Shown here piece by piece: positions 1-13,112 of a stretch of DNA of 64,000 bases (positions within the stretch are counted from its first letter, which is position 1; every line of letters begins with the position of its first letter). Source of the DNA: Nitrosopumilus sp. (GTDB lineage Archaea > Thermoproteota > Nitrososphaeria > Nitrososphaerales > Nitrosopumilaceae). The position numbers and the translations under genes were made by a program. The notes under the pieces were generated by a model. That model did no database searches. It had not been told where the DNA came from and worked only from the letters and a program-made list of their open reading frames with translations. The stretch lies in NCBI GenBank assembly GCA_965205425.1, contig CBDBGZ010000009.1:448001-512000 (forward strand), in the 5' to 3' direction.

Positions 1-231
1 TTTTCATCTGGTTGTATATCTATAAGATTCTGTAATTGGAAATCAGAACAGTAAAAAAGATATTTTTTAGGATTTTTTTTAATATCCGTATAATCTACAA
101 AATTAGGATAATCTAAAAATTCACGTTCCCAATTTTTATAATCTGATTGAATTTCATTCATAGAATATTTAGAATGATCCAGCAAACCCCAAGACTTCCT
201 TGAAACAAATACTTTGATACCTGAATCTACA

Positions 232-1273
232 TATCTTTTCCGGAAATTATTTCACCCCTTAACTAGGAGAGCATCATTCCCATACTATCGTATGCGTGGG
301 TATCGTGGCATACCTATGGTAAAGTTAGATGAGAATAAGATCAGGTGGATTATACAATCTAAAAATGAAAAAGTCAAGAATTTAGATATTTCAGTAATCC
401 TCAAGATAACGCCTAGAAGAGTACAACAAGTCTACTCTCAGTACAAAAAAACCAAAAAGATTCCCACACTCAAAAGACCAGGGCGTCCAAAAAAGCCAGT
501 CACTGTACACGAGATAGAGCTAGTCAAACAAGTTCAAGAAAAATTTCATACAAACGCACTATACCTTGAGAAAATCATATCAAAATTGTACAATACCAAG
601 ATAAACCACAATCGCATCCACAAGATTATGCTAGATGAAGGATTATCAGTTGAGCAACCACGGAAAAAGATGAGAAGAAAGTGGATCAGGTATGAACGTG
701 AATATTCAAATTCACTGTGGCATACTGACTGGCACACAATACATGATTCACGCTGGGCAGGAAAACAACTAATTGCATTTGAAGATGATGCCTCACGATT
801 TATCACGGGTTTCGGAGTGTATGATGAGGCAACATCTGTGAATTCTTCTGCAGTACTATCTGATGCAATAAAGAATCACGGTAGACCAGCATCCGTACTA
901 TCTGATAATGGAAAACAGTTCACATCAAATGTCAATACTCTTGATCATAACAAGCCAGTAGACTTTGAGCAGCAACTAATGAGACATCACGTAAAGCACT
1001 CTCGTACAAGAGTGAGACATCCACAAACAAATGGTAAGCTAGAAAAGTTCTGGGATATCTTTGAGTGTAAAATAGAATACTTTGAGTCAGTGGAGCAGTT
1101 TATGCATTGGTACAATCACATTAGAGTTCATGGCGCACTAGACTTGGATAACATGGAGACACCATCTGATGCGTATCACTCCAAGATGATAACAAACGAA
1201 ATACTCATAGACCCAAGTATTCTATGGAGGAATTACTCATGAAAGTGACACGAAATAATTTCTGGAAAGAACA
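232..1273 (+). mobile_element. IS481-family insertion sequence
   Basis: Imperfect 22-bp IRs TATCTTTTCCGGAAATTATTTC / rc TGTTCTTTCCAGAAATTATTTC; 15-bp direct repeat ATACCTGAATCTACA at 217-231 and 1274-1288. Confidence 0.88.
316..1242 (+). CDS. IS481-family transposase (HTH + rve integrase core)
   Basis: LWHTDW, EDDASRF, LSDNGKQF, HPQTNGKLEKF, WYNHIRVHGAL motifs; start placed at MVKL inside the element. Confidence 0.9.
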   Translation: MVKLDENKIRWIIQSKNEKVKNLDISVILKITPRRVQQVYSQYKKTKKIPTLKRPGRPKKPVTVHEIELVKQVQEKFHTNALYLEKIISKLYNTKINHNRIHKIMLDEGLSVEQPRKKMRRKWIRYEREYSNSLWHTDWHTIHDSRWAGKQLIAFEDDASRFITGFGVYDEATSVNSSAVLSDAIKNHGRPASVLSDNGKQFTSNVNTLDHNKPVDFEQQLMRHHVKHSRTRVRHPQTNGKLEKFWDIFECKIEYFESVEQFMHWYNHIRVHGALDLDNMETPSDAYHSKMITNEILIDPSILWRNYS

Positions 1274-1493
1274 ATACCTGAATCTACAGGTGAAGGATAA
1301 ATATGTCTCCAATCACTTGTAGTTTGAAATAATTTTAACAGATAAGCTTGTTTTGTATCTATAACTAAATCACGTCCCATTATTTTAGATGCATTATAAA
1401 ACGAAAGCAATCTATCAAGATCTCTAGTTGGATACGTGCATACAACTAAACCTTCAGTATTTCCAATAACATCAGCAACCTTATCTTCAACAT

Positions 1494-2812
1494 CAGTAGA
1501 TGGGAAAGTACATCAAATTACACATTCTAGAAAATAATTATTTTTGTTATTTCTAAAGTAATGAATAATTATCTTTACAAAGAAATATTTGAGAATTTCA
1601 ATTGATATTATTGGTTTGTGATTTTGTACATTAGTTTCTTCTGAGATAATCAAATTAGCAATTATCCATGCATTGTACAAAATCAATGAATAGTAAAAAT
1701 ACAACAATCTTATGGATTGGTTTGAACTGGTGGTTTTTGGTCTGAACCTTCCCACACATGCATATCCTGTTTCAATTCCCCAACGTTTCTTGTAATCAGT
1801 TGGAATGTTTTGTATGTTATATGATATTTCTTTTGGTGAAACGTTTGTTGCAAACACAACATACTGATCAATAATATTTGATTTTTTTCTTGCATTTTTG
1901 TTTGGTAGAATAACTAGATTAAATGATTCTACATGTCCTGATGATGATTTTATTGTGTATGGCGAGATTGACTTTCTATCTCCATTAACGTATTGTAAAA
2001 TGGCATCTTTGATTCGAGAATTCTTTTTTGCAGGCATTAGAAATTTCAGATTCTTTTGTTTTATTTCTGAAATTGTTCCAGCTGTGAAAAACTCCCTATC
2101 CACTAGCAATAGTTTAATCTTGATTCCATTATTGATGCCATCAGAGAGTAATTTACGCACAAAACCGGCATTTGATATGTTGTCATACAAAGGATAACAA
2201 CCTAGTTGAGCCCTGATTCTTTTTTCAACGCACTGCATGGTGCAGTAACTCTCAAAATGAGTAGTACTGTTTTTTGATTTTGATTTTATTAAAGAATGGT
2301 TTGGCAATTTGTCATATCTTGGGATTAGATGTTTGTCAATTGCCACAGTAACTGGTTGCTCCAATACTCCCAATTCTTGTAATTTTGATACTGTACTATC
2401 CAGTGAACGATGTAATTGAATTTGCATTGTTTTTTGTGATATTTTTGATATGATTTTTCTCAACCATGAACCAGTTGGAGAATGATTCTGGGATTCCATT
2501 GCCAGTCTCTTTAATCCAGATTCAGAATATGAATTTCCCAAACACAATGACATGATAGAATTATGTGCGTCTGCATTGTGGAACCGTGAGTTATTTTTAC
2601 TAGAGCATGGAAACAACAAGATATTGTACATTATTTTAGTGATAATCTCAAATGCTTTAGATAGTATCACGCCTTGGTGTGTCATGGTATCAAATGAAGT
2701 ACAATGCATATTTGATGGAGTGACATACTTTCATCAAGCTTTTTCTATCTGAATAGATTGATTGAATAATTGATAGTTTTTGATCTAAATTGAGTTACTT
2801 TCCCATCTACTG
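1494..2812 (-). mobile_element. ISH3-family (IS4-like) insertion sequence, copy 1
   Basis: 17-bp perfect IR CAGTAGATGGGAAAGTA at both ends; 5-bp TSD AACAT (1489-1493, 2813-2817). Confidence 0.85.
1513..2709 (-). CDS. ISH3-family DDE transposase
   Basis: VAID, LLVDREF and YKKRWGIETGY (YREK-like) motifs; fills the element. Confidence 0.85.
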   Translation of the reverse strand: MHCTSFDTMTHQGVILSKAFEIITKIMYNILLFPCSSKNNSRFHNADAHNSIMSLCLGNSYSESGLKRLAMESQNHSPTGSWLRKIISKISQKTMQIQLHRSLDSTVSKLQELGVLEQPVTVAIDKHLIPRYDKLPNHSLIKSKSKNSTTHFESYCTMQCVEKRIRAQLGCYPLYDNISNAGFVRKLLSDGINNGIKIKLLLVDREFFTAGTISEIKQKNLKFLMPAKKNSRIKDAILQYVNGDRKSISPYTIKSSSGHVESFNLVILPNKNARKKSNIIDQYVVFATNVSPKEISYNIQNIPTDYKKRWGIETGYACVGRFRPKTTSSNQSIRLLYFYYSLILYNAWIIANLIISEETNVQNHKPIISIEILKYFFVKIIIHYFRNNKNNYFLECVI

Positions 2813-3672
2813 AACATCAAATTCATTAATACTACCTTGTTTGTTAATTCTCGTTCCTTCACATAAAAGATAATCAAGATTTTCTAATCCACATTTATCA
2901 ACAAAATTTTGACTATTATTAGGATTTCTTCCATGAAATCTAATATCAGCCGTATATCCAATATCACCTTCAGAAGTATGAATCAAAAATCCAAATACTC
3001 CAGGTAATGAATGATCAATGGGTATTGATTCAACAGTTATTGAATCAAATTTTAGTTCTTTTGAAGGATTAATAATTTGAATATTCCTATCAATCTCGTC
3101 TCTATGCTCAGGATTTTTTGCTCTACTATATTCTCCTTTAGAATTTTTATACATTTTAAAATTTTCTTTGTAAGTAATGTATTCTTCATCGCCACCCATA
3201 TCTTGAAAGCCTTGCATGATTAACTTACTTGCACTAGAACAATAAATTGGAATTTCAGGTCTCAGATAATGTATATATGCACAATGATCAACATGTGCAT
3301 GAGTTAATAAAACTCCATCAACTTGAGTTTCTTCATTATAATCACCATATCCCATATGTTTTGAATAATCTTTACGATAAATTCCTTTAACATCAGGTAA
3401 TAAATCAAATTCAAACAAATCCCCAAACCCATTTAATTTTCTCGGATTCATAAATTCTGCAAAATATTGATTTACTTTGCCCATCTGCATCCCAAAATCA
3501 AGAAAAACTTTAGTATCTTTATCTTTGAGTAAAATTTTATTTCCTCCGATTTCATTTATGCCACCATAAAATGTTAGAGATACCATAGAGATATGATAAC
3601 CACCTATAATAAAAAATAGATTATAAAAATAAACAATCAATATTTCTTGTTATAAAAAAATATTTGATAATA

Positions 3673-3888
3673 CTATTCATTCTCAACAATCATATCAATC
3701 ACATCTCTTTTACTAATATGATATTTTTTTCTATATTCATCAATCATATATACATCGTCTAAAGAAGACAATTCATCCAAAACAAGTTTTTTAGAATATT
3801 CATCTTCTAAAATTTCCAACTGTTCTTTAGAAAATATTGTATTTAATTTTGTTAAATTTTCATTTTGGATGATTATTTCTAAAACCAT
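3673..3888 (-). CDS. small hypothetical protein, possibly with a ribbon-helix-helix-like C-terminus
   Basis: 71-aa ATG ORF directly upstream of and co-oriented with the MBL gene; IDEYRKKYHISKRDVIDMIV resembles RHH helices (weak). Confidence 0.55.
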   Translation of the reverse strand: MVLEIIIQNENLTKLNTIFSKEQLEILEDEYSKKLVLDELSSLDDVYMIDEYRKKYHISKRDVIDMIVENE

Positions 3889-4016
3889 ATGAAAAATAAG
3901 AAATCTGGAGTTTTAAGTAACAGTTATTACATAATACCCTTCAGCATAATCTAAATTTCCCGCATCATACCCACAATCAAGAACAAATGTAAATAAGACA
4001 AACTTGGATTTAAATT

Positions 4017-4997
4017 ATGAAAAATCAATATATAGAAGACCTTCAAGATAATACAGAAATTAATTCAACATTTGCAGTAACATCAAAATCATCACCAGGA
4101 AATTACAAAAATAAAACTGGATTGTGGTTTTCCATTGAAATTACAGATAAAACTGGAAAGATGGATATCAAATATTGGGGAGGATTGGATGAAGAGAAAA
4201 CTGAGAAAATACATAATTCCTTTGAAGTAGGAGACATAATATCAATTACAGGTAAATGTAGATTTGATAATTATTCAAATTCTCTGACAATATCAATTGA
4301 TGAGAAAAATGGACAGACAATTCAAAAAAGTGATACGTTTGATCTAGTAGATTTTCTTCCAACTACAAACAAAGACATAGACAAAATGGTATTAAATTTA
4401 AAAAATATCATTGAAGAAATAGAAAATACAGACATGAAAATACTAATGAAATCTTTCTTTGATGATGCAATATTTTTAGAAAAATATTCAAAAACACCTG
4501 CTGCATCAATATATCATCATAACTACGTAGGAGGATTAATTGAACATGTTTTGAATATGATTGAATTAGCTAAAGTGATATCAACACAATATCCAAATGA
4601 ATTAGATTTGGATTTATTGATTGTGGGATGTATACTTCATGATATAGGAAAAATGAAAGAATTGGAGATGAAAGCATCCATCACATATAGTGTAACAGGT
4701 TCACTACTAGGACATATTACAATAGGATCACACATGGTACAAAACAAAATTGAATCAATAGAGAATTTCCCAGAAAATCTAAAAAATAAAATTCTTCATT
4801 TAATTTTAAGTCATCATGGTTCATTAGAATTTGGATCTCCAGTAGAACCAATGATTCCAGAAGCAATTGTATTAAACAGAATTGATGAATGTGATTCAAA
4901 AACAAAACGTGTATTGCAATTAAAACAAGAACATATGTCTAAAAGTAAAGATGAAATTATCCGTATTAGGAATTTTGGAAAAATGTATTTAAAATAA
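4017..4997 (+). CDS. YhaM/Cbf1-like 3'-5' exoribonuclease (OB fold + HD domain)
   Basis: N-terminal OB-like region (ITDKTGKMDIKYW); PAASIYHHNYVGGLIEH, LHDIGK, LLGHI, ILSHHGSLEFGSP, EAIVLNRIDECD. Confidence 0.88.
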   Translation: MKNQYIEDLQDNTEINSTFAVTSKSSPGNYKNKTGLWFSIEITDKTGKMDIKYWGGLDEEKTEKIHNSFEVGDIISITGKCRFDNYSNSLTISIDEKNGQTIQKSDTFDLVDFLPTTNKDIDKMVLNLKNIIEEIENTDMKILMKSFFDDAIFLEKYSKTPAASIYHHNYVGGLIEHVLNMIELAKVISTQYPNELDLDLLIVGCILHDIGKMKELEMKASITYSVTGSLLGHITIGSHMVQNKIESIENFPENLKNKILHLILSHHGSLEFGSPVEPMIPEAIVLNRIDECDSKTKRVLQLKQEHMSKSKDEIIRIRNFGKMYLK

Positions 4998-5048
4998 AAA
5001 TTACCTGCATTACCGCCTTATCAAATTTAACAAAGTCCACAAACTACA

Positions 5049-5074
5049 ACCTTAGTGCAAATTTGCACTAAGGT
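5049..5074. repeat. 26-bp perfect palindrome ACCTTAGTGCAAATTTGCACTAAGGT
   Basis: The 13-bp arms are exact reverse complements with no spacer. Confidence 0.95.
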
Positions 5075-5090
5075 CAGCAACTAAACCACA

Positions 5091-5986
5091 TATAGCGAAA
5101 AGATAAAGTTCGTGAACTAAATTATTCCAAAACAAAAAACTTTTTGATCACTATGTATGGTAAAATTTGATGAACAAGTTAGAATCACTTGAAGCAGCAT
5201 ACAAAAAAGAAAACTCCAAGGTTGCAGCAAGGATGCTTGCAGTGTTGATGATTCTAAAGGATGGAAAGGACATACAGTGCACTGCAAAGACATTACACCA
5301 CTGCACAAGCTGGGTGAGAAAATGGGTGAGTCGTTTTGAGATAGATGGCCTCTACGATCTCCCAAGAAGTGTAGGCCAAGAACAATCTCCCAGACCAGAA
5401 TGGATTGTATCATGTCAAAAGCAATGCTAACTTTGTTTACTCCCATAATGTTGCAACAAAGTATCTTTTATTCCACTGGAGTAAAATTTCACATAACCCA
5501 CATCAGAAAGATAATGCACCAATACGGCAAGAGAATATTTCTTCCATATACAGGACGACATGAGAGTCTGGTAGTGTATGGTACAATTACAGAAAATGGT
5601 AATCAACTATTCAGAGTTTATAACAAATTCAATGCTGTAACATTTGTAGAATATCTAAAAGAGTTACACTGGAAATACGGCAAAATTGCAATCATTTTAG
5701 ATAGAGCATCAGTTCACAAATCAAAGAAGGTAAAGGAATACCTTGCAAACAATAGAGATGTCAAACTAATCTGGTTGCCAAAGGGATCACCATACTTGAA
5801 CATGATAGAGCAGTGCTGGAAGATAAGCAAATATGCATTGTTGGTTTCAGAGTATTATGCAATGTTTGCAATAATGAACAAGGCAGTGTCCGAATATTTC
5901 AGAGTGACAAAATTCAAGCTTGATGTTGCAAATTATATCTTTAGAAATCCTGCAAAGATGTTTGCGAACTTTTGATCGTCGCTATA
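5091..5986 (+). mobile_element. degenerate IS630-family element (frameshifted, internally deleted)
   Basis: Ends TA|TAGCGAAAAGATAAAGTTCG and rc TA|TAGCGACGATCAAAAGTTCG with TA duplication; HTH fragment 5167-5430 and DDE_3 fragment 5400-5975 (LDRASVH, SPYLNMIEQCW) lacking the first catalytic Asp block. Confidence 0.85.
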
Positions 5987-5989
5987 CAA

Positions 5990-6048
5990 GACGTTATGAC
6001 CATCAGTCTGGAACGCCCGAAGGGTGTTACGACTGAGGAAGGAACGTC
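5990..6048. ncRNA. GC-rich three-segment hairpin; candidate structured RNA or ssDNA element
   Basis: GACGTT/AACGTC, TCAGTC/GACTGA and AACGCCC-GAA-GGGTGTT nested pairings in AT-rich context. Confidence 0.5.
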
Positions 6049-6069
6049 ACAAAATCCATAATAACAATG

Positions 6070-6140
6070 TGGACCCGTTGGGAGTTGAACCCAAATCTCC
6101 TAGTTCTTACTTAGGTGCGTGACCGTCACGCTACGAGCCC
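6070..6140 (-). ncRNA. non-canonical tRNA-like gene (nominal anticodon AAG, short variable loop)
   Basis: Cloverleaf GGGCTCG-TA-GCGT GACGGTC ACGC-A-CCTAA GTAAGAA CTAGG-AGAT-TTGGG TTCAACT CCCAA-CGGGTCC-A, 71 nt. Confidence 0.8.
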
Positions 6141-6175
6141 ACAAAGTATATTAGAAAATACTAAACTAATAATGT

Positions 6176-6191
6176 TAGTTCTTACTTAGGT
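6176..6191. repeat. exact 16-bp copy of the anticodon arm of the tRNA-like gene
   Basis: TAGTTCTTACTTAGGT at 6101-6116 and 6176-6191. Confidence 0.95.
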
Positions 6192-6284
6192 TAGGCCAGC
6201 GCGCTAATCTCTTTTTTCTATTTTCAAAATATGGTACGTGTTTAGGTCCAGACTCACACATATTTTACAGTAGATGGGAAAGTA

Positions 6285-7430
6285 TAGTTAAGGCATTAAA
6301 TATTTGAATAATTTCACAACTCGAACGTCTCCATTATCTAGTCTCTTCTGCATGTGTTTTCTCATCTCAGTTCCATTTGCAAAGAATGTATTGGCATTAC
6401 CATTTTTCTCTTCTCTCCACTGTACCTCAATTGGATTGAGTTCTGGGGTGTATGCAGGAAAATATCTTATGATTACATTTCTTTTTGATACCTTGAGAAA
6501 TTCTTTTACTCTGACACTTTTGTGGTATGATGCATTGTCTGCAAATAATAACAGTTTCTTACCAAATTGTTTCTGCAGTGATTCTAAAAAATCAAGAAAT
6601 GAGTCTGTGTTTGATTTATCATAAAATCTGCAAAAAAATACGCCGTCATCCCCCAATGCACCAAATGATTGAAATTTTTCTCGAGTGTAATTAATTGGTG
6701 TGGTAATGTTATTGCCTGCAAGATACCATCCGCGCTTTATGTTAGGTGCTATCTTGTTTGTTGACTCATCCAGACATAGTGTGGTGTATCCCAATTTGGA
6801 ATATTTTTTGATACTCCTTTTTGCGTTTTTTTAAAACGGGTTTGTTCCTCTTTTGAGGCTGATTTGTGATGTGTGGGACGTGGTTTTTTTGATGAGAATC
6901 CAATTCTGTGCAGCAATTCACGCATTCCTCTTGCAGAGTATAGGGTGTTGTATTTTTTATTCACATGTGTAATTACCATTCTTGTACTCCACATGAATTG
7001 GTTAAATCCAAACTTTTCTGGACCTGAAATTAGATCATTTCTTAATGATACTAGCTGTTTTTCATTTAGAAAACATCTAGAACCAGAATATTTCTTGCGG
7101 TGTGATGCAGATATTCCCTCTTCATCCATTCGATTTAGCCAGTAGGACAGAGTTGATGGTATGACATCCAGACTTGCACATATCACAGAATACGGAATAT
7201 TTTGTTTTCTTAGTATTGCAGCCTTTAATCTTATCTTTGCTTTTGCATTTTTTTCATTCTTGCATACTTTTCTTAAAAAATTAATGCTTGTACCTTTCAT
7301 GAATTGATTTCCAGAGGAAACCTTGGATTGTCTTGTACTCTTTGACATGGTTTCATGAATTGATTCTACGATCTAGATCTTTTGGGTTAAAATACTTGAC
7401 AGTTTATTCAGAATTTATATGCCTAAATTA
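6285..7430 (-). mobile_element. IS630-family element inserted at a TA inside the ISH3 inverted repeat
   Basis: TA duplication at 6283-6284 and 7431-7432; ends TAGTTAAGGCAT / rc TAATTTAGGCAT. Confidence 0.88.
6288..7348 (-). CDS. IS630 transposase in two overlapping ORFs (6749-7348 HTH, 6288-6794 DDE), probable -1 programmed frameshift
   Basis: orfA winged-HTH (MWSTRMV, LHRIGFSSKKPRP); orfB CLDES, ADNASYH, YTPELNPIE; slippery TTTTAAAAAAAC near 6825-6836. Confidence 0.82.
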
Positions 7431-7434
7431 TAAC

Positions 7435-9667
7435 TCAAGTTACACATTCTAGAAAATAATTATTTTTGTTATTTCTAAAGTAATGAATAATTATCTTTAC
7501 AAAGAAATATTTGAGAATTTCAATTGATATTATTGGTTTGTAATTTTTTACATTAGTTTCTTCTGAGATAATCAAATTAGCAATTATCCATGCATTGTAC
7601 AAAATCAATGAATAGTAAAAATACAACAATCTTATGGATTGGTTTGAACTGGTGGTTTTTGGTCTGAACCTTCCCACACATGCATAGCCTGTTTCAATTC
7701 CCCAACGTTTCTTGTAATCAGTTGGAATGTTTTGTATGTTATATGATATTTCTTTTGGTGAAACGTTTGTTGCAAACACAACATACTGATCAATAATATC
7801 TGATTTTTTTCTTGCATTTTTGTTTGGTAGAATAACTAGATTAAATGATTCTACATGTCCTGATGATGATTTTATTGTGTATGGCGAGATTGACTTTCTA
7901 TCTCCATTAACGTATTGTAAAATGGCATCTTTGATTCGAGAATTCTTTTTTGCAGGCATTAGAAATTTTAAATTCCTTTGTTTTATTTCTGAAATTGTTC
8001 CAGCTGTGAAAAACTCCCTATCCACTAGCAATAGTTTAATCTTGATTCCATTATTGATGCCATCAGAGAGTAATTTACGCACAAAATCGGCATTTGATAT
8101 GTTGTCATACAAAGGATAACAACCTAATTGAGCCCTGATTCTTTTTTCAACGCACTGCATGGTGCAGTAACTCTCAAAATGAGTAGTACTGTTTTTAGAT
8201 TTTGATTTTATTAAAGAATGGTTTGGCAATTTGTCATATCTTGGGATTAGATGTTTGTCAATTGCTACAGTAACTGGTTGCTCCAATACTCCCAATTCTT
8301 GTAATTTTGATATGGTACTATCTAGTGACTGATGTAATTGAATTTGCATTGTTTTTTGTGATATTTTTGATATGATTTTTCTCAACCATGAACCAGTTGG
8401 AGAAGCATTATCTGATTCCATTGCCAGTCTCTTTAATCCTGATTCTGCATACGAATTTCCCAAACACAATGACATGATAGAATTATGTGCATCTGCATTG
8501 TGGAACCGTGAGTTATTTTTACTAGAGCATGGAAACAACAAGATATTGTACATTATTTTAGTGATAATCTCGGGTGTGTCCTAAAAGTAGACAAATATAA
8601 CAATTTTATTCAATTCTGTAACATATTGATCGCATGGAATCACAACAACTATGCAAAACAAATCAAAAAGAGACTGGCAAGTATATGGCACATATCGCAA
8701 GGATGAGGAGATTCTATTCTTGGAAAAAGTAAAGAAGACAGTTTGGAGTATGGATACACCATGGGAACCAAAGACAGGCGGACGTCCTGCATTTCCAACA
8801 AAAGCAAAGATAATGTGTGCAATGCTAAAGGTAAAGTTTGGATTGGATTATCGTTCCATGGAGTCCCACTTGAGATCAAGGCCGGATCTGTTGGAAATAA
8901 TGGAGCTCAAAAAAGCACCAAGCAAGACTGTCATTAATGACAGTCTAAAAAGAATTCCAATGCCTTATTTGAAAAAGGTAAACGCAAAACTCACAGAACC
9001 AATCAAAAAAAAGACATAGCTCCTGACAGTTCAGGATTTGGTACCAAAAGATGTGAGGCTTGGTTTGACATCAAGACAAACACGCACAAATCCAAGAAAT
9101 TATATCTAAAACTGCACATCCTAATTGCAATACAGTCCATGGCAATAGTATCTTTTGACATTACTAAAGGAACTCGTGGTGATGCACCAATTCTCAAAAA
9201 ATTAATCAAAGACATTCCAAAGGGAATTGGTGATTTTTGTGCAGATCCTGCATATTTGTCACGAGACATTTGCAATATGGTAGCTACTCTGCAAAAGATA
9301 CCATACATCAAACCAAAGAAGAACACAGTTAGAAATCCCAAAGGCTCTGCATCATGGAAAAAAAATGATAACATTATTCCAGGACAATCAAGATGAATTT
9401 GACAGACATTATCACAAGAGGTCACTTGTTGAATCAGTATTTGCAGTACTCAAAAGAATCTTTGGAAATAGCTTGTCATCAAAAAACAAGTTGGTTCAAA
9501 GAAAAGAGTTGGCGTTGCGTGTAATTTGTTACAACATACGAGTTGTTAATTTGATGGGGGTTACAAAACATGTTAGAGGATAGTTTTAGGACACACCCGA
9601 TAATCTCAAATGCTTTAGATAGTATCACGCCTTGGTGTGTCATGGTATCAAATGAAGTACAATGCAT
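7435..9667 (-). pseudogene. ISH3 transposase split by an IS5 insertion
   Basis: 9599-9667 encodes MHCTSFDTMTHQGVILSKAFEII and 7435-8571 the remainder, matching ORF 1513-2709. Confidence 0.88.
8572..9598 (+). mobile_element. IS5-family element with frameshifted transposase (fragments 8651-9019, ~9020-9396, 9365-9583)
   Basis: 15-bp IR GGGTGTGTCCTAAAA; 9-bp TSD GATAATCTC (8563-8571, 9599-9607); motifs DSSGF, CADPAY, YHKRSLVESVFAVLKR; frame changes at A-runs near 9006 and 9358. Confidence 0.85.
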
Positions 9668-9837
9668 ATTTGATGGAGTGACATACTTCCATCAAGCTTT
9701 TTCTATCTGAATAGATTGATTGAATAATTGATAGTTTTTGATCTAAATTGAGTTACTTTCCCATCTACTGAATTATAGTCAAATCTTTCCATCAATTGAT
9801 ATAGAATATGGGACAAGATAAAGGCTCAGTTGTGGTA

Positions 9838-9911
9838 TGGGCCCGAAGGGCTTCGATCCCTTGGCTCACCGGTTATGAGCCGGTTACTCTACCAAGCTGA
9901 GTTACGGGCCC
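9838..9911 (-). tRNA. tRNA with CAU anticodon, probably tRNA-Ile2 (agmatidine type) rather than Met
   Basis: GGGCCCG acceptor; anticodon arm ACCGG-CTCATAA-CCGGT; T arm AAGGG-ATCGAAG-CCCTT; no initiator A1-U72 pair. Confidence 0.9.
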
Positions 9912-9952
9912 TAAGCAAAGGAATTTTTTCTCAGGTATAAAATGTTATGAGA

Positions 9953-10585
9953 TTAACAATATTCTTCATAACAACTATCAAGTAACAAATTTTGTGCTGA
10001 AATTGATTTGTCTGCAATTTCAATCAATTTGCCAGAATCAATAGAGGATTTCTCTAGAATATTTCTCCATGATGCTGCATGTCTAATATCAGCTTCAGTA
10101 TGAAGTTCGAAGTATTCTGTAGCTTCATTACTTGTCATTCCATAAAATTCTGCCAATCCATCAAGTTTGGTTTGACTAATTTTAGGAATTTCTTTTTCAA
10201 ATGCATACATGGCACAAGCACCGCCATCAAATGTGTCCATTAATTGATTCAGGTCAGATACTGCTTTTTGGGTTTTAGTTGTTCCTGAATACGAAATTAA
10301 TTCATCCTTAGATATTCCAAGTTCGCCTGCAAAAGCAATCCATGATTTAATATGATCAGATTCTTCTTGTTGGTTTTCAACTAGTTCGCCAATTATAGTA
10401 TCTGATGCTTTTTCAATTATCGGAGTCATAAATGCAGGAACTGCTTTGACAAGTTGAAAATATTCTTTAGAATAACCTGCAAGAGATTCCTGCGTTAATT
10501 TTCCATCAGACCACATTTGGTAGAATGGGTGTTTTAGTAAACTTCTTTCTTCAATCATTTCATCAATTTTTTGTATTATGTTCAT
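9953..10585 (-). CDS. CADD/PqqC/TenA-like heme-oxygenase-fold di-metal protein
   Basis: LLKHPFYQMWSDG, EESDHIKSW, YAFE and LHTEADIRHA metal-ligand pattern. Confidence 0.8.
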   Translation of the reverse strand: MNIIQKIDEMIEERSLLKHPFYQMWSDGKLTQESLAGYSKEYFQLVKAVPAFMTPIIEKASDTIIGELVENQQEESDHIKSWIAFAGELGISKDELISYSGTTKTQKAVSDLNQLMDTFDGGACAMYAFEKEIPKISQTKLDGLAEFYGMTSNEATEYFELHTEADIRHAASWRNILEKSSIDSGKLIEIADKSISAQNLLLDSCYEEYC

Positions 10586-10665
10586 AGTTCATCTCCAATA
10601 TTGCCAATAAAAAAATCTTTGTGGGTTACAAAAGATTTTATGATGATAATGCAGAATTTTTATGG

Positions 10666-10744
10666 GTTCCAGTGGTGTAGACCGGTCAAGCATTTTGCCC
10701 TTTCAAGGCAAAGATCCCGGGTTCAAATCCCGGCTGGAGCACCA
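10666..10744 (+). tRNA. tRNA-Glu(TTC) with encoded CCA
   Basis: GTTCCAG/CTGGAGC acceptor; TTGCC-CTTTCAA-GGCAA anticodon arm; GGTTCAAATCC T-loop. Confidence 0.95.
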
Positions 10745-10771
10745 AGATTTATTTACTTATGGTAAAGTTTT

Positions 10772-11638
10772 TTGAACAGGCTCATCTTGGACAGGAAAAA
10801 TATCGAGATAAATCCTCTACTTGAAACCTATGGTAAATACATTGAACGTATTGATCAAGCTTTAGAAAATGAACTAAGTATCTATTCAGAATCAGAGTTC
10901 ATTGAACCTCTAAAATATTCTCTAGAGGGAGGAAAACGAATTAGGCCTATAATTTTGAATCTAGCAGCAGAGAGTGTAGGTAAAATTGATGAAAATGTAC
11001 TTTCAGCTTCATGTGCAGTTGAATTTCTCCACATGGAATCAATAATTCATGATGATATTATTGATAATGAAACAATGAGAAGACAAAAGGAACCATTCCA
11101 CATCAAATATGGATACAATACAAGTGTACTAACTGGAGATTTTGTTTTAGGATTAATTCTTGCAATATCATCTAGACTAGATAATGCTAGAATTACAAAA
11201 GATTTGGCTACTACTGCCATGCTAATGAGTGAAGGAGAAATGATTGAAGGTAGATTAGAAACAGGTGAGGATGTAACATTTGATGATTATCTAAAAGTAA
11301 TTGAATACAAAACAGCAGTAGCATTTCAAGTTGCAGCAAGAATAGGTGCAATTATTGCAAATGGAACTGAAGAACAAATTGAAGCTTTAACTGAATATGG
11401 AAAAAATCTTGGAATCGCATATCAAATTAGAGATGATTTACTTGATTGGAAAAATGAAGACAAACTGTTTAATTTGTTAATCAAGAAAAGTTCGGATCCA
11501 AGAGATGTCTTTAACAAAATGGAAGAAATGTTAAAAGAATACTCAGAAAAAGCAAGAATAGGATTGAGAAAAATTCCAGATAGTGATGCAAAAATAAATT
11601 TAGATAATTTAATTAAATTTACTTCGTTTAAGGCATAA
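10772..11638 (+). CDS. polyprenyl (geranylgeranyl) diphosphate synthase
   Basis: GGKRIRP, HDDIID and QIRDDLLD aspartate-rich motifs. Confidence 0.92.
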   Translation: MNRLILDRKNIEINPLLETYGKYIERIDQALENELSIYSESEFIEPLKYSLEGGKRIRPIILNLAAESVGKIDENVLSASCAVEFLHMESIIHDDIIDNETMRRQKEPFHIKYGYNTSVLTGDFVLGLILAISSRLDNARITKDLATTAMLMSEGEMIEGRLETGEDVTFDDYLKVIEYKTAVAFQVAARIGAIIANGTEEQIEALTEYGKNLGIAYQIRDDLLDWKNEDKLFNLLIKKSSDPRDVFNKMEEMLKEYSEKARIGLRKIPDSDAKINLDNLIKFTSFKA

Positions 11639-13112
11639 GACCTAAACTAATTACGGGAGTTGCAAACTCTACAAATTTGAGTAATGGTTCTGGATATACA
11701 CCGAATCCTACTAAGAATATAGTTGAGAAGATCATTACAGCGATAATAGATTTTGGTTCTACAACTCTCTTTTCTGTTTCTCCTTCAAAGTACATCTTTC
11801 GTGTAATCCAACCATAGTAAGCAAGTGATAAAGCACTGTTAAGAACACCAGCAATTGCAAGCCATGGTGCCCACCATAAAGCAGAACTAGCATCCAAAGC
11901 ACTTCCAAATAACATCAATTTACTCCAAAATCCTGAAAGTGGGGGAACTCCTGCGAGTGCAAATAGAGCAATAATCATACCTAAAGCAGTTATTGGCATT
12001 CTTCTTCCAAGTCCTTTTAGTTTGTCAATGTGAGTAACTCCAAGTGTTGTAACGATACCTGCAATTGCAATAAAGGCAGCACCTTTCATTACTGCATGAT
12101 TCATAATTTGATACAAAGAACCTTGTAATCCAAGAGAACTATGTGGAGATACTGCAAGTCCAATCAAAATGTATCCGGCATGAGCGATACTAGAATATGC
12201 CAACATTCTTGAAATGCTCTTTTGCATAATTGCTGCAACATTTCCTATTGTCATAGTCATTACTGCAATAATACCAAGAGCTAAAGTCCAATCAAGATTT
12301 AGAACCACCATACCAAGAACTACAATTCTAATTGTTGCAGCAAATCCTGCTTTCTTTGTTGCAGCAGCTAATAGTGCAGTGATAGGAGATGGAGCGCCTT
12401 CATATGTATCTGGTAGCCACTGATGGAATGGAATAAGTCCCATTTTAAATCCAAATCCTGCAATAAACATTCCAACTGAAAGTAATGCAAGAGGCAACAT
12501 GGAAGGATCAAGTGTAGAATATCCTTGAATTACTTCTCCAATATTTGTAGAACCAGTTAATCCATAAGAAATTGAAATTCCGTAAACTATGATTGCAGAA
12601 GATAACGCACCAAAGAGGAAATATTTTAGAGCAGCTTCGTTTGAGCTTGGATTCTTTTTCATGTAACCAACCAAAATGTATGTTGGAATACTCATGAGTT
12701 CCCATGCAACAAATAACATTATCAAATCTGTAGAATATGCAACTAGAACCATACCAATTGTTGCAAGTAAAATTAGTGAATAGTAAACTGCAGGAGAATT
12801 GTGTTTTCGCATATAGTTGAAAGAGCCAACAGTTGTGAAAACAGCAACAATCAACATTGCAATTGCGAAGAAGCCTCCAAATGCATCATCTACAATTACA
12901 TCTTCAGAAAATAGAGCAGATGAAACAACATTCTCATTGATGAATTGGTATCCAACATATCCCATAGATACAATTAATGCAGCAAATGCAATGACGGCAT
13001 AAAATGAGTTTGAGCCTTGTTCTTTTCTTACAATGCTAATAATTGGAAGAAGAATACCAACGGTACCTAAGATTGCAATTATTATCAAGGGAGTGGAAGT
13101 AATTTCGATCAT
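11628..13112 (-). CDS. nuoN: NADH-quinone oxidoreductase subunit N
   Basis: EAALKYF, FKMGLIPFHQWLPDTYEGAP, RMLAYSSIAHAGY. Confidence 0.95.
   Translation of the reverse strand: MIEITSTPLIIIAILGTVGILLPIISIVRKEQGSNSFYAVIAFAALIVSMGYVGYQFINENVVSSALFSEDVIVDDAFGGFFAIAMLIVAVFTTVGSFNYMRKHNSPAVYYSLILLATIGMVLVAYSTDLIMLFVAWELMSIPTYILVGYMKKNPSSNEAALKYFLFGALSSAIIVYGISISYGLTGSTNIGEVIQGYSTLDPSMLPLALLSVGMFIAGFGFKMGLIPFHQWLPDTYEGAPSPITALLAAATKKAGFAATIRIVVLGMVVLNLDWTLALGIIAVMTMTIGNVAAIMQKSISRMLAYSSIAHAGYILIGLAVSPHSSLGLQGSLYQIMNHAVMKGAAFIAIAGIVTTLGVTHIDKLKGLGRRMPITALGMIIALFALAGVPPLSGFWSKLMLFGSALDASSALWWAPWLAIAGVLNSALSLAYYGWITRKMYFEGETEKRVVEPKSIIAVMIFSTIFLVGFGVYPEPLLKFVEFATPVISLGLMP

Follow-up and report, generated by a model that had tools for sequence, protein, structure and literature searches.

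Type VIII toxin-antitoxin (TA) systems such as SdsR-RyeA and CreTA share with the locus reported here a compact pairing of two small RNAs, one the proposed neutraliser, and exist in many variants without cross-reaction (PMC10767807). Allo-tRNAs, transfer RNAs (tRNAs) of serine or alanine identity, some with G3:U70, carry foreign anticodons and miscode, as the tRNA described here would; they are lethal when expressed in E. coli, and occur in Acidobacteria and near TA genes (PMC5389517, PMC7609411). The tRNA-ProX/ProRSx system of Streptomyces likewise comprises natural miscoders with dual identity, A34 anticodons and graded toxicity in E. coli (PMC11415595). The function of natural miscoding tRNAs is an open question (PMC5389517, PMC11415595). 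Here we describe, within a 64,000-nucleotide stretch of a Nitrosopumilus sp. genome (GenBank assembly GCA_965205425.1, contig CBDBGZ010000009.1, positions 448,001 to 512,000; hereafter the window), a tRNA of alanine type with a leucine anticodon that stands beside a separate unit complementary to its anticodon arm. Judged from its sequence and distribution, this RNA core makes a strong candidate for an all-RNA module of a new kind.

An alanine-type tRNA beside an antisense unit

The window tRNA (Table 1) matches the Rfam tRNA model over its full length in the 7/5 form. Its acceptor stem carries the alanine identity set of G1-C72, G2-C71, G3·U70 and A73 (G1 at 6140, G3·U70 at 6138/6073, A73 at 6070), and its anticodon arm (anticodon at 6108-6106) contains an A31·C39 mismatch. 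ARAGORN calls the gene tRNA-Leu, with a 4-nt variable loop where the long variable arm needed for archaeal leucylation is missing. G3·U70 is a conserved alanine determinant; archaeal leucine identity comprises a long variable arm and A73, the arm being needed for leucylation by the H. volcanii rule, and aspartate identity comprises G73 and the anticodon (PMC9976931). The host genome encodes alanyl-tRNA synthetase (AlaRS). The initial annotation of the window had taken this gene for a tRNA mimic and overlooked its alanine identity; it is better read as a working, miscoding tRNA. Six sister genes accompany it, the seven extra tRNAs called by ARAGORN being 72-75 nt long (two AAG, two GAA and three GUC anticodons) and lying in a genome that also has normal Leu, Phe and Asp tRNAs. 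All seven combine G3·U70, A73 and a non-Ala anticodon, marks for which the search had not asked.

Upstream of the window tRNA, and back to back with its promoter, lies a predicted transcription unit in which 6175-6191 is complementary to the tRNA anticodon arm, followed by a hairpin (6189-6209) and a T-run (6212-6217). The complementarity includes an exact 16-bp repeat (6101-6116 and 6176-6191) that is far longer than chance would give: comparable exact matches upstream of the other tRNA calls in this genome reach 8 nt at most, excepting two related units on contig C4 with 16 nt each. The upstream copy of each C4 unit, like that of the window, varies exactly with the arm of its own tRNA. The repeat had been recorded before, but its covariation with the anticodon had been missed; it is the antisense partner of the tRNA. 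In the remaining four units the copy is inverted and downstream, and in both layouts one strand presents a TATA-like box, about 25 nt, the anticodon-arm complement, a small hairpin and a T-run. A cognate antisense unit accompanies 7/7 of the extra tRNAs, across Leu, Phe and Asp anticodons, and a scan of the whole genome for the hairpin-terminator motif recovered only these seven units. Co-folding of the window pair gains about -15 kcal/mol, and by binding energy each of the seven predicted antisense RNAs prefers its own arm over every host tRNA arm. A scan of the window for sigma-70 promoters found none, as expected for an archaeon. An archaeal box C/D guide was considered for the antisense RNA and rejected: C and D boxes were not seen around the antisense stretch in the units inspected, and 6172-6217 has no Rfam match.

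The same genome contains serine-type tRNAs with long arms and the Phe anticodon GAA (C8:120792-120883, C9:901280-901368 and C9:254931-255020), as does another locus (L030:5907-5988). For each of the three in this genome, the opposite strand carries a TATA-like box about 25-35 nt beyond the tRNA 3' end, and a T-rich tract lies beyond the 5' end, an arrangement possibly giving a cis-antisense RNA over the whole gene as a second version of the same logic. One long-arm GAA tRNA lies 430 bp from an Asp module with an alanine body. A further long-arm tRNA-like gene (C9:1042184-1042268), with A73, an irregular anticodon arm (Gly ACC by ARAGORN) and an insertion sequence (IS) directly at its 3' end, may be a leucine-type miscoder or a relic.

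Occurrence and covariation in archaea, bacteria and metagenomes

A DNA search detected the unit in 12/150 relatives, three of them marginal. We also searched with a pattern comprising an alanine body (G3·U70/A73) and A or U at the middle of the anticodon, which largely excludes anticodons with G or C there. Matches occurred in 20/151 genomes of the genus, three solely via true tRNA-Ala, leaving 17/151; class-wide they occurred in 21/401 genomes, all within the family Nitrosopumilaceae (six genera), and in 0/166 outside it. After identical copies were collapsed, and true tRNA-Ala matches and G067 (a parser reject with a 17-nt antisense run) dropped, 50 units remained, with anticodons GAA (18), GUC (11), AAG (10), CAG (4), GAG (2), UCU (2) and one each of ACU, AUC and GAU. 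An antisense run over the anticodon reaches at least 10 nt in 46/50 and at least 12 nt in 43, whereas the two wrong orientations gave at most 11 nt, as did 46 host tRNA calls (mean 7.4). At one locus (L071) the upstream DNA has been lost to an IS.

Within the 46 units the antisense stretch is organized consistently: 39 runs lie at a fixed offset of 30-34 nt, a T-run follows the hairpin in 43, and a TATA-like motif precedes the stretch by 17-31 nt in 43, the motif being loose and counted without a shuffled control. Mean duplex energies are -23.3 kcal/mol for cognate pairs, -6.8 for non-cognate pairs and -9.2 for pairs sharing the anticodon with another stem, and with 43 distinct arms the own RNA is the best partner in 43/46 units. 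Watson-Crick complementarity at positions 29-40 is 89-100% against 31-68% when shuffled, leaving aside the invariant position 37, and falls to background at positions 42-43. Transitions at positions 29-39 that keep pairing through G·U number 11/200 and those that break it 2/295; the excess of the former points to an RNA duplex on the predicted strand. The 3' hairpin also tends to pair with its own D arm (-14.6 against -8.9). On the tRNA side, the 31-39 pair forms in 45/46 host tRNAs and 17/46 module tRNAs, leaving it open in 29/46. A canonical 7-nt loop with purine 37 is present in 44/46, and the bases at 32/33 are non-standard in part of the family. With the arm masked, the nearest host tRNA is tRNA-Ala for 36/50 units.

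Comparable units extend beyond archaea. A scan of species genomes returned at least 113 loci; among the matches listed, to which this and the following counts refer, 49 distinct non-Ala tRNAs were parsed, 33 of them with an antisense stretch. The 41 non-archaeal units include 30 with GUC, GAU or AGU anticodons, of which 28 have the stretch, and the carriers include Acidobacteriota and Actinomycetota. In 24/28 the bacterial stretch lies directly behind a sigma-70-like promoter, against 2% of control positions, and behind it come a stable hairpin and, in most cases, a T-run. The complement of the GUC loop resembles a -35 hexamer, yet the matches also include part of the variable stems, and a distinct -35/-10 pair is present further upstream. 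Metagenomes gave at least 121 loci (32 unparsed) with 77 distinct non-Ala tRNAs; 50/77 have an antisense stretch (GUC 40/47), at least two of the 50 being neighbouring tRNA genes and not partners, and a swap control gave 14/296. One actinobacterial locus adjoins a phage integrase, and a search of plasmids with one bacterial module found no match. At L403:8846-10295 (G492), two bacterial GUC modules with different stems and their own antisense units flank a 305-aa gene without a Pfam match and adjoin a class I Glu/Gln-tRNA synthetase gene. Four metagenomic loci (L499, L516, L517 and L558) hold arrays of alanine-body tRNAs with the stop-reading anticodons CUA and UUA and no antisense units.

The module is mobile. 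In G077, a 10.2-kb element that encodes a tyrosine integrase and has 12-bp direct repeats ends in the module, the hairpin and the palindrome (the latter two described below); its insertion site is empty in the window genome. Across 28 archaeal loci there is no common partner gene; the neighbours are transposases, TraG/VirB4-like ATPases, restriction and other defence genes, and core genes. Three things are evident from sequence: an alanine-type tRNA with a foreign anticodon, a separate promoter-to-terminator unit that tracks its arm, and mobility.

Decayed copies lose the tRNA first. Seven units (L006, L010, L015, L016, L019, L021 and L022) keep the antisense cassette while the tRNA is cut or interrupted, and in one further unit the T loop is mutated. 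At L019/L039 (G077) a 36-nt insert splits the module tRNA and 37 nt of its D and anticodon arms are duplicated; the antisense unit there is intact. At L010 (G014) the stretch from the antisense copy to the anticodon arm is deleted, and with it the shared promoter and the 5' half of the tRNA, a built-in inactivation route of the divergent layout. Just downstream of the tRNA, L064 and L039 (G077) have an orphan anti-Asp cassette with no matching tRNA beside it, which could protect against incoming Asp modules.

Proposed mechanism and competing explanations

We read the pair, with moderate confidence, as a minimal all-RNA TA (addiction) module in which a mistranslating tRNA would be the toxin and an anti-anticodon RNA the antidote. 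A tRNA derived from tRNA-Ala would keep G3·U70 and A73, and host AlaRS, blind to the anticodon, would load it with alanine. It would then place alanine at foreign codons, CUU (Leu) in the window and Phe, Asp or Ile codons in relatives; A34 anticodons would read the commoner U-ending codons directly (codon usage, CUU 1.56% against CUC 0.45%). The antidote, of about 45 nt and made from its own promoter, would invade the anticodon arm opened by the 31-39 mismatch with its free 5' part, often aided by D-arm pairing, and would block decoding or send the tRNA to decay. After loss of the element or a halt in transcription, the small RNA would decay ahead of the stable tRNA and mistranslation would arrest the cell; miscoding allo-tRNAs do arrest E. 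coli (PMC5389517). Diversification of the stems would let each antidote neutralise its own tRNA only and spare host tRNAs. Expression, charging, miscoding, toxicity and differential stability of the two RNAs are what we infer. Extended across two domains, this reading rather probably describes a class of protein-free selfish or defence modules, each an alanine-body mistranslating tRNA toxin and a dedicated anti-anticodon antidote in lock-and-key co-evolution. Lock-and-key arms would allow many incompatible copies to coexist per genome, many of them now mis-annotated as tRNA-Asp, -Phe or -Leu. An addiction-type module built on a tRNA-like RNA had been proposed before; the type is plausible, and it is the composition that changes, the nucleases dropping out and the antisense RNA coming in.

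Several observations weigh against this reading. In the relatives the search pattern itself required G3·U70/A73, kin are not independent (the 46 units fall into 26-35 sequence clusters), and the pairing register was picked by best match. Intact-looking tRNAs at L073, L213 and L214 have no nearby antisense unit, and a search for a trans-encoded one for L073 and L213 found none. The mismatched 31-39 pair and an unusual G32 or C33 could make poor decoders, and GAA versions, which carry the Phe identity set (anticodon and A73), could be partly charged correctly. Bacterial GUC units are less specific (own RNA best in 16/28), and four Acidobacteriota loci, as a point against bacterial addiction, lie among housekeeping genes with no integrase found nearby. 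Viral contigs rarely have the pair (1/20, 3/7 and 2/27 parsed tRNAs, the last two doubtful).

An unlikely alternative is that switchable mistranslation serves the host: the antisense RNA would silence the tRNA until stress or a virus strikes, and released miscoding would abort infection or induce dormancy. Restriction-modification, GmrSD, HNH and AbiEi genes among the archaeal neighbours agree with this, as do the chromosomal context of Acidobacteriota copies and the presence of up to seven copies per genome with differing anticodons. However, there is no fixed partner gene, and the patchy distribution (17/151 genus genomes) and the frequent decay fit a selfish module. It is distinctly less plausible that the tRNA is a non-decoding decoy or mimic that soaks up AlaRS, modification enzymes or an anticodon nuclease, its availability being regulated by the antisense RNA. 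Such a role would suit the open anticodon stem (29/46) and the non-standard 32/33 bases, and some allo-tRNAs are translation-inactive yet lethal (PMC5389517). Against it, a canonical 7-nt loop with purine 37 (44/46) is retained along with meaningful anticodons; A34 anticodons fit frequent U-ending codons, and masking an anticodon matters most if it is used.

The initial annotation had joined an MBL ribonuclease, an HD nuclease, a small regulator and the tRNA mimic into one system, which now looks very improbable. All of its parts do lie in one island bounded by attachment (att) repeats. The RNase J-like MBL gene, unlike the intact RNA module, is however a pseudogene that two multicopy IS elements have split into three minus-strand pieces; contig C5 carries one unbroken paralogue, which the pieces match at 54-59%. 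The two nucleases share domain content with RNase J-like beta-CASP hydrolases (TIGR00649) and YhaM (NF010007; E 3e-46 for the OB-HD protein), with scores far under the curated cut-offs in both cases. PADLOC has no model for the MBL protein or the 71-aa open reading frame (ORF) and gave only generic Cas3-HD matches for the HD protein. The 71-aa ORF matched only itself among proteins of near length and had no Atlas match, which leaves the role of small regulator unsupported.

Neighbourhoods of homologues tell the same story. HD homologues occur in 5/150 relatives beside metabolic genes, and those five neighbourhoods (20 kb, or a whole 6.3-kb contig) contain no MBL gene, 71-aa gene or module tRNA. 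MBL homologues occur in 45/150 genus genomes; four genomes have both HD and MBL, in each case more than 200 kb apart. An MBL homologue is present in 10/16 other genomes with a pattern-matched tRNA, above the 30% background (45/150), but lies within 10 kb of that tRNA in one of the ten only (G021, 7.4 kb), where the tRNA has no antisense unit and the MBL gene is the last of a NurA-HerA-Mre11-Rad50-type operon. The other six modules of the window genome have no MBL- or HD-type genes nearby. Linkage of MBL, HD and tRNA was absent from these neighbourhoods, the outcome that the initial annotation itself had set as refuting its proposal; for the nucleases that proposal is largely refuted, and neither is part of the RNA module. 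Intact MBL homologues in two genomes (L024:8228-11951 and L263:15610-18574) have an HFX_2341-like CARF/Csa3-wHTH gene in their vicinity.

That the 16-bp copy is a DNA feature, an attachment site or a duplication scar at the anticodon arm with the tRNAs as by-products of integration, is scarcely credible. The exact direct repeat in the window and the L010 deletion between two copies would suit it; against this, the copy is inverted and downstream in 13/46, both layouts give antisense RNA from the strand with promoter and T-run, G·U-type changes dominate, and bacterial copies follow sigma-70 promoters. Reassignment of a Leu codon to Ala, known from Ashbya mitochondria, has a negligible chance: G3·U70 tRNAs of such a kind do occur in reassigned codes (PMC7609411), but here Leu, Phe and Asp versions share one genome with normal cognate tRNAs, most relatives have none, and an antisense partner would be needless.

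The carrier island and comparison with known systems

All the parts listed by the initial annotation are present (MBL, 71-aa ORF, OB-HD gene, palindrome, hairpin, tRNA and 16-bp repeat), though the cluster is compact only once the IS at 5091-5986, presumably IS630-like, is removed (Table 1). Its proposal that the island was acquired horizontally and sits at a tRNA 3' end holds: a second copy of the 13-bp att repeat lies at window positions -347 to -335, and the pair bounds the island. The CAU tRNA at 9838-9911 is labelled Met, and the genome has two other CAU tRNAs; given archaeal tRNA sets, it is likely the Ile2 tRNA.

Table 1. Features of the island in the window (contig C9) and the basis of each assignment
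Feature	Position	Strand	Basis or remark
MBL pseudogene, C-terminal piece	1..231	-	285 bases further beyond window start
Multicopy IS element (rve transposase), inserted in MBL gene	232..1273	+	BLAST vs own genome
MBL pseudogene, middle piece	1274..1493	-	
Multicopy IS element (DDE_Tnp_1), inserted in MBL gene	1494..2812	-	BLAST vs own genome
MBL pseudogene, N-terminal piece	2813..3586	-	258 codons
71-aa ORF	3673..3888	-	
YhaM-like OB-HD nuclease gene, island cargo	4017..4997	+	
Perfect 26-bp palindrome	5049..5074	no strand	
Multicopy IS element (DDE_3 transposase, internally deleted), between palindrome and hairpin	5091..5986	+	BLAST vs own genome
59-nt hairpin	5990..6048	no strand	
Alanine-identity tRNA, Leu anticodon AAG; proposed toxin	6069..6140	-	Rfam tRNA, 47 bits
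BRE/TATA-like promoter of antisense RNA	6142..6153	+	
Putative TATA-like box about 30 nt upstream of tRNA	6167..6173	-	Archaeal promoter spacing
Predicted antisense RNA, about 45 nt; proposed antitoxin	6172..6217	+	Predicted start site
Multicopy IS DNA	6283-9770		BLAST vs own genome
13-bp att repeat, 3' end of CAU tRNA	9838..9850	-	

The palindrome is present in 2/251 genomes of the family and has no match in viral contigs. In G077 it is directly joined to the hairpin at the end of the 10.2-kb integrase-bearing element, and this junction, free of an IS, is also found in DNA contigs of run X1, in which the module is present as well; in G204 the palindrome lies 3 kb away from a module. The hairpin stands behind the tRNA module twice in G077 and also in G204, where the central loop is longer; its outer stems are kept and its central loop is variable. 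Rfam supported no ribozyme or known RNA family for it, and it probably serves as a cis element of the mobile carrier. Near the ends of module-bearing elements on L237 (1700-1900 and 5095-5260) there are imperfect 11+4+11 palindromes and repeated short motifs, and such palindromes and motifs at element ends are possible recombination or transfer-origin signals. Directly past the antisense terminator, window positions 6231-6282 hold the end of a small multicopy element and then an IS end fragment. The genome is IS-rich, with several families in dozens of copies each, and its canonical tRNAs include duplicates (Glu CUC, Thr UGU, Tyr, Leu CAA and Ser UGA) whose copies differ slightly; duplicate tRNAs and IS copies alike may be either att copies of integrated elements or assembly redundancy (contamination figure 5.2%).

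Two features that define type VIII systems are found here as predictions: both components are non-coding RNA genes in one locus, and the putative antitoxin is specifically complementary to the toxin, as computed from cognate pairing and covariation. SdsR and RyeA act by mRNA regulation. They overlap on opposite strands, whereas the module antidote would be a separate gene that pairs with the anticodon arm. In CreTA, CreT sequesters rare tRNAs and CreA represses transcription via CRISPR Cascade; in the module the toxin itself would be a miscoding tRNA. The CreTA antitoxin is flanked by CRISPR-like repeats beside cas genes, and neither was found for the module: cas genes are absent from the 130 neighbour proteins around 28 loci, and window positions 1-12000 have no CRISPR-like Rfam match. 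Allo-tRNAs have an 8/4 or 9/3 acceptor branch and a long variable arm, unlike the 7/5 form and 4-5 nt loop of the module tRNAs; the main texts of their descriptions report none in archaea and no antisense partner, the word 'antisense' occurring 0 times (PMC5389517, PMC7609411). In tRNA-ProX, proline identity comes with a co-encoded synthetase, and the portions of the source consulted mention no antisense partner (PMC11415595); the module has an alanine acceptor stem, for which host AlaRS would suffice, and no recurrent synthetase gene lies beside its loci.

In the open-access literature, supplements apart, mostly at title and abstract level and with few subscription journals, we found no miscoding tRNA with a cognate antisense RNA; the allo-tRNA loci displayed in the supplementary files of PMC5389517 may matter for novelty. 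If the proposed reading is true, natural miscoding tRNAs gain a function, and TA biology gains two new mechanisms, mistranslation across the proteome by an RNA on the toxin side and masking of the anticodon on the antitoxin side. It would also mean that anticodon-based annotation mislabels module genes in archaea and bacteria, and would offer a natural design for switchable suppressor tRNAs. Because the whole module is about 150-250 bases long and can do without dedicated proteins, a test would be cheap and direct. Even without a toxin role, it calls for explanation that in two domains of life a small RNA should be dedicated to a tRNA and follow its anticodon base by base. By analogy with the systems above, the module would be type VIII-like in its logic and allo-tRNA-like in its chemistry, while departing from CreTA, allo-tRNAs and tRNA-ProX in the features that define each of them.

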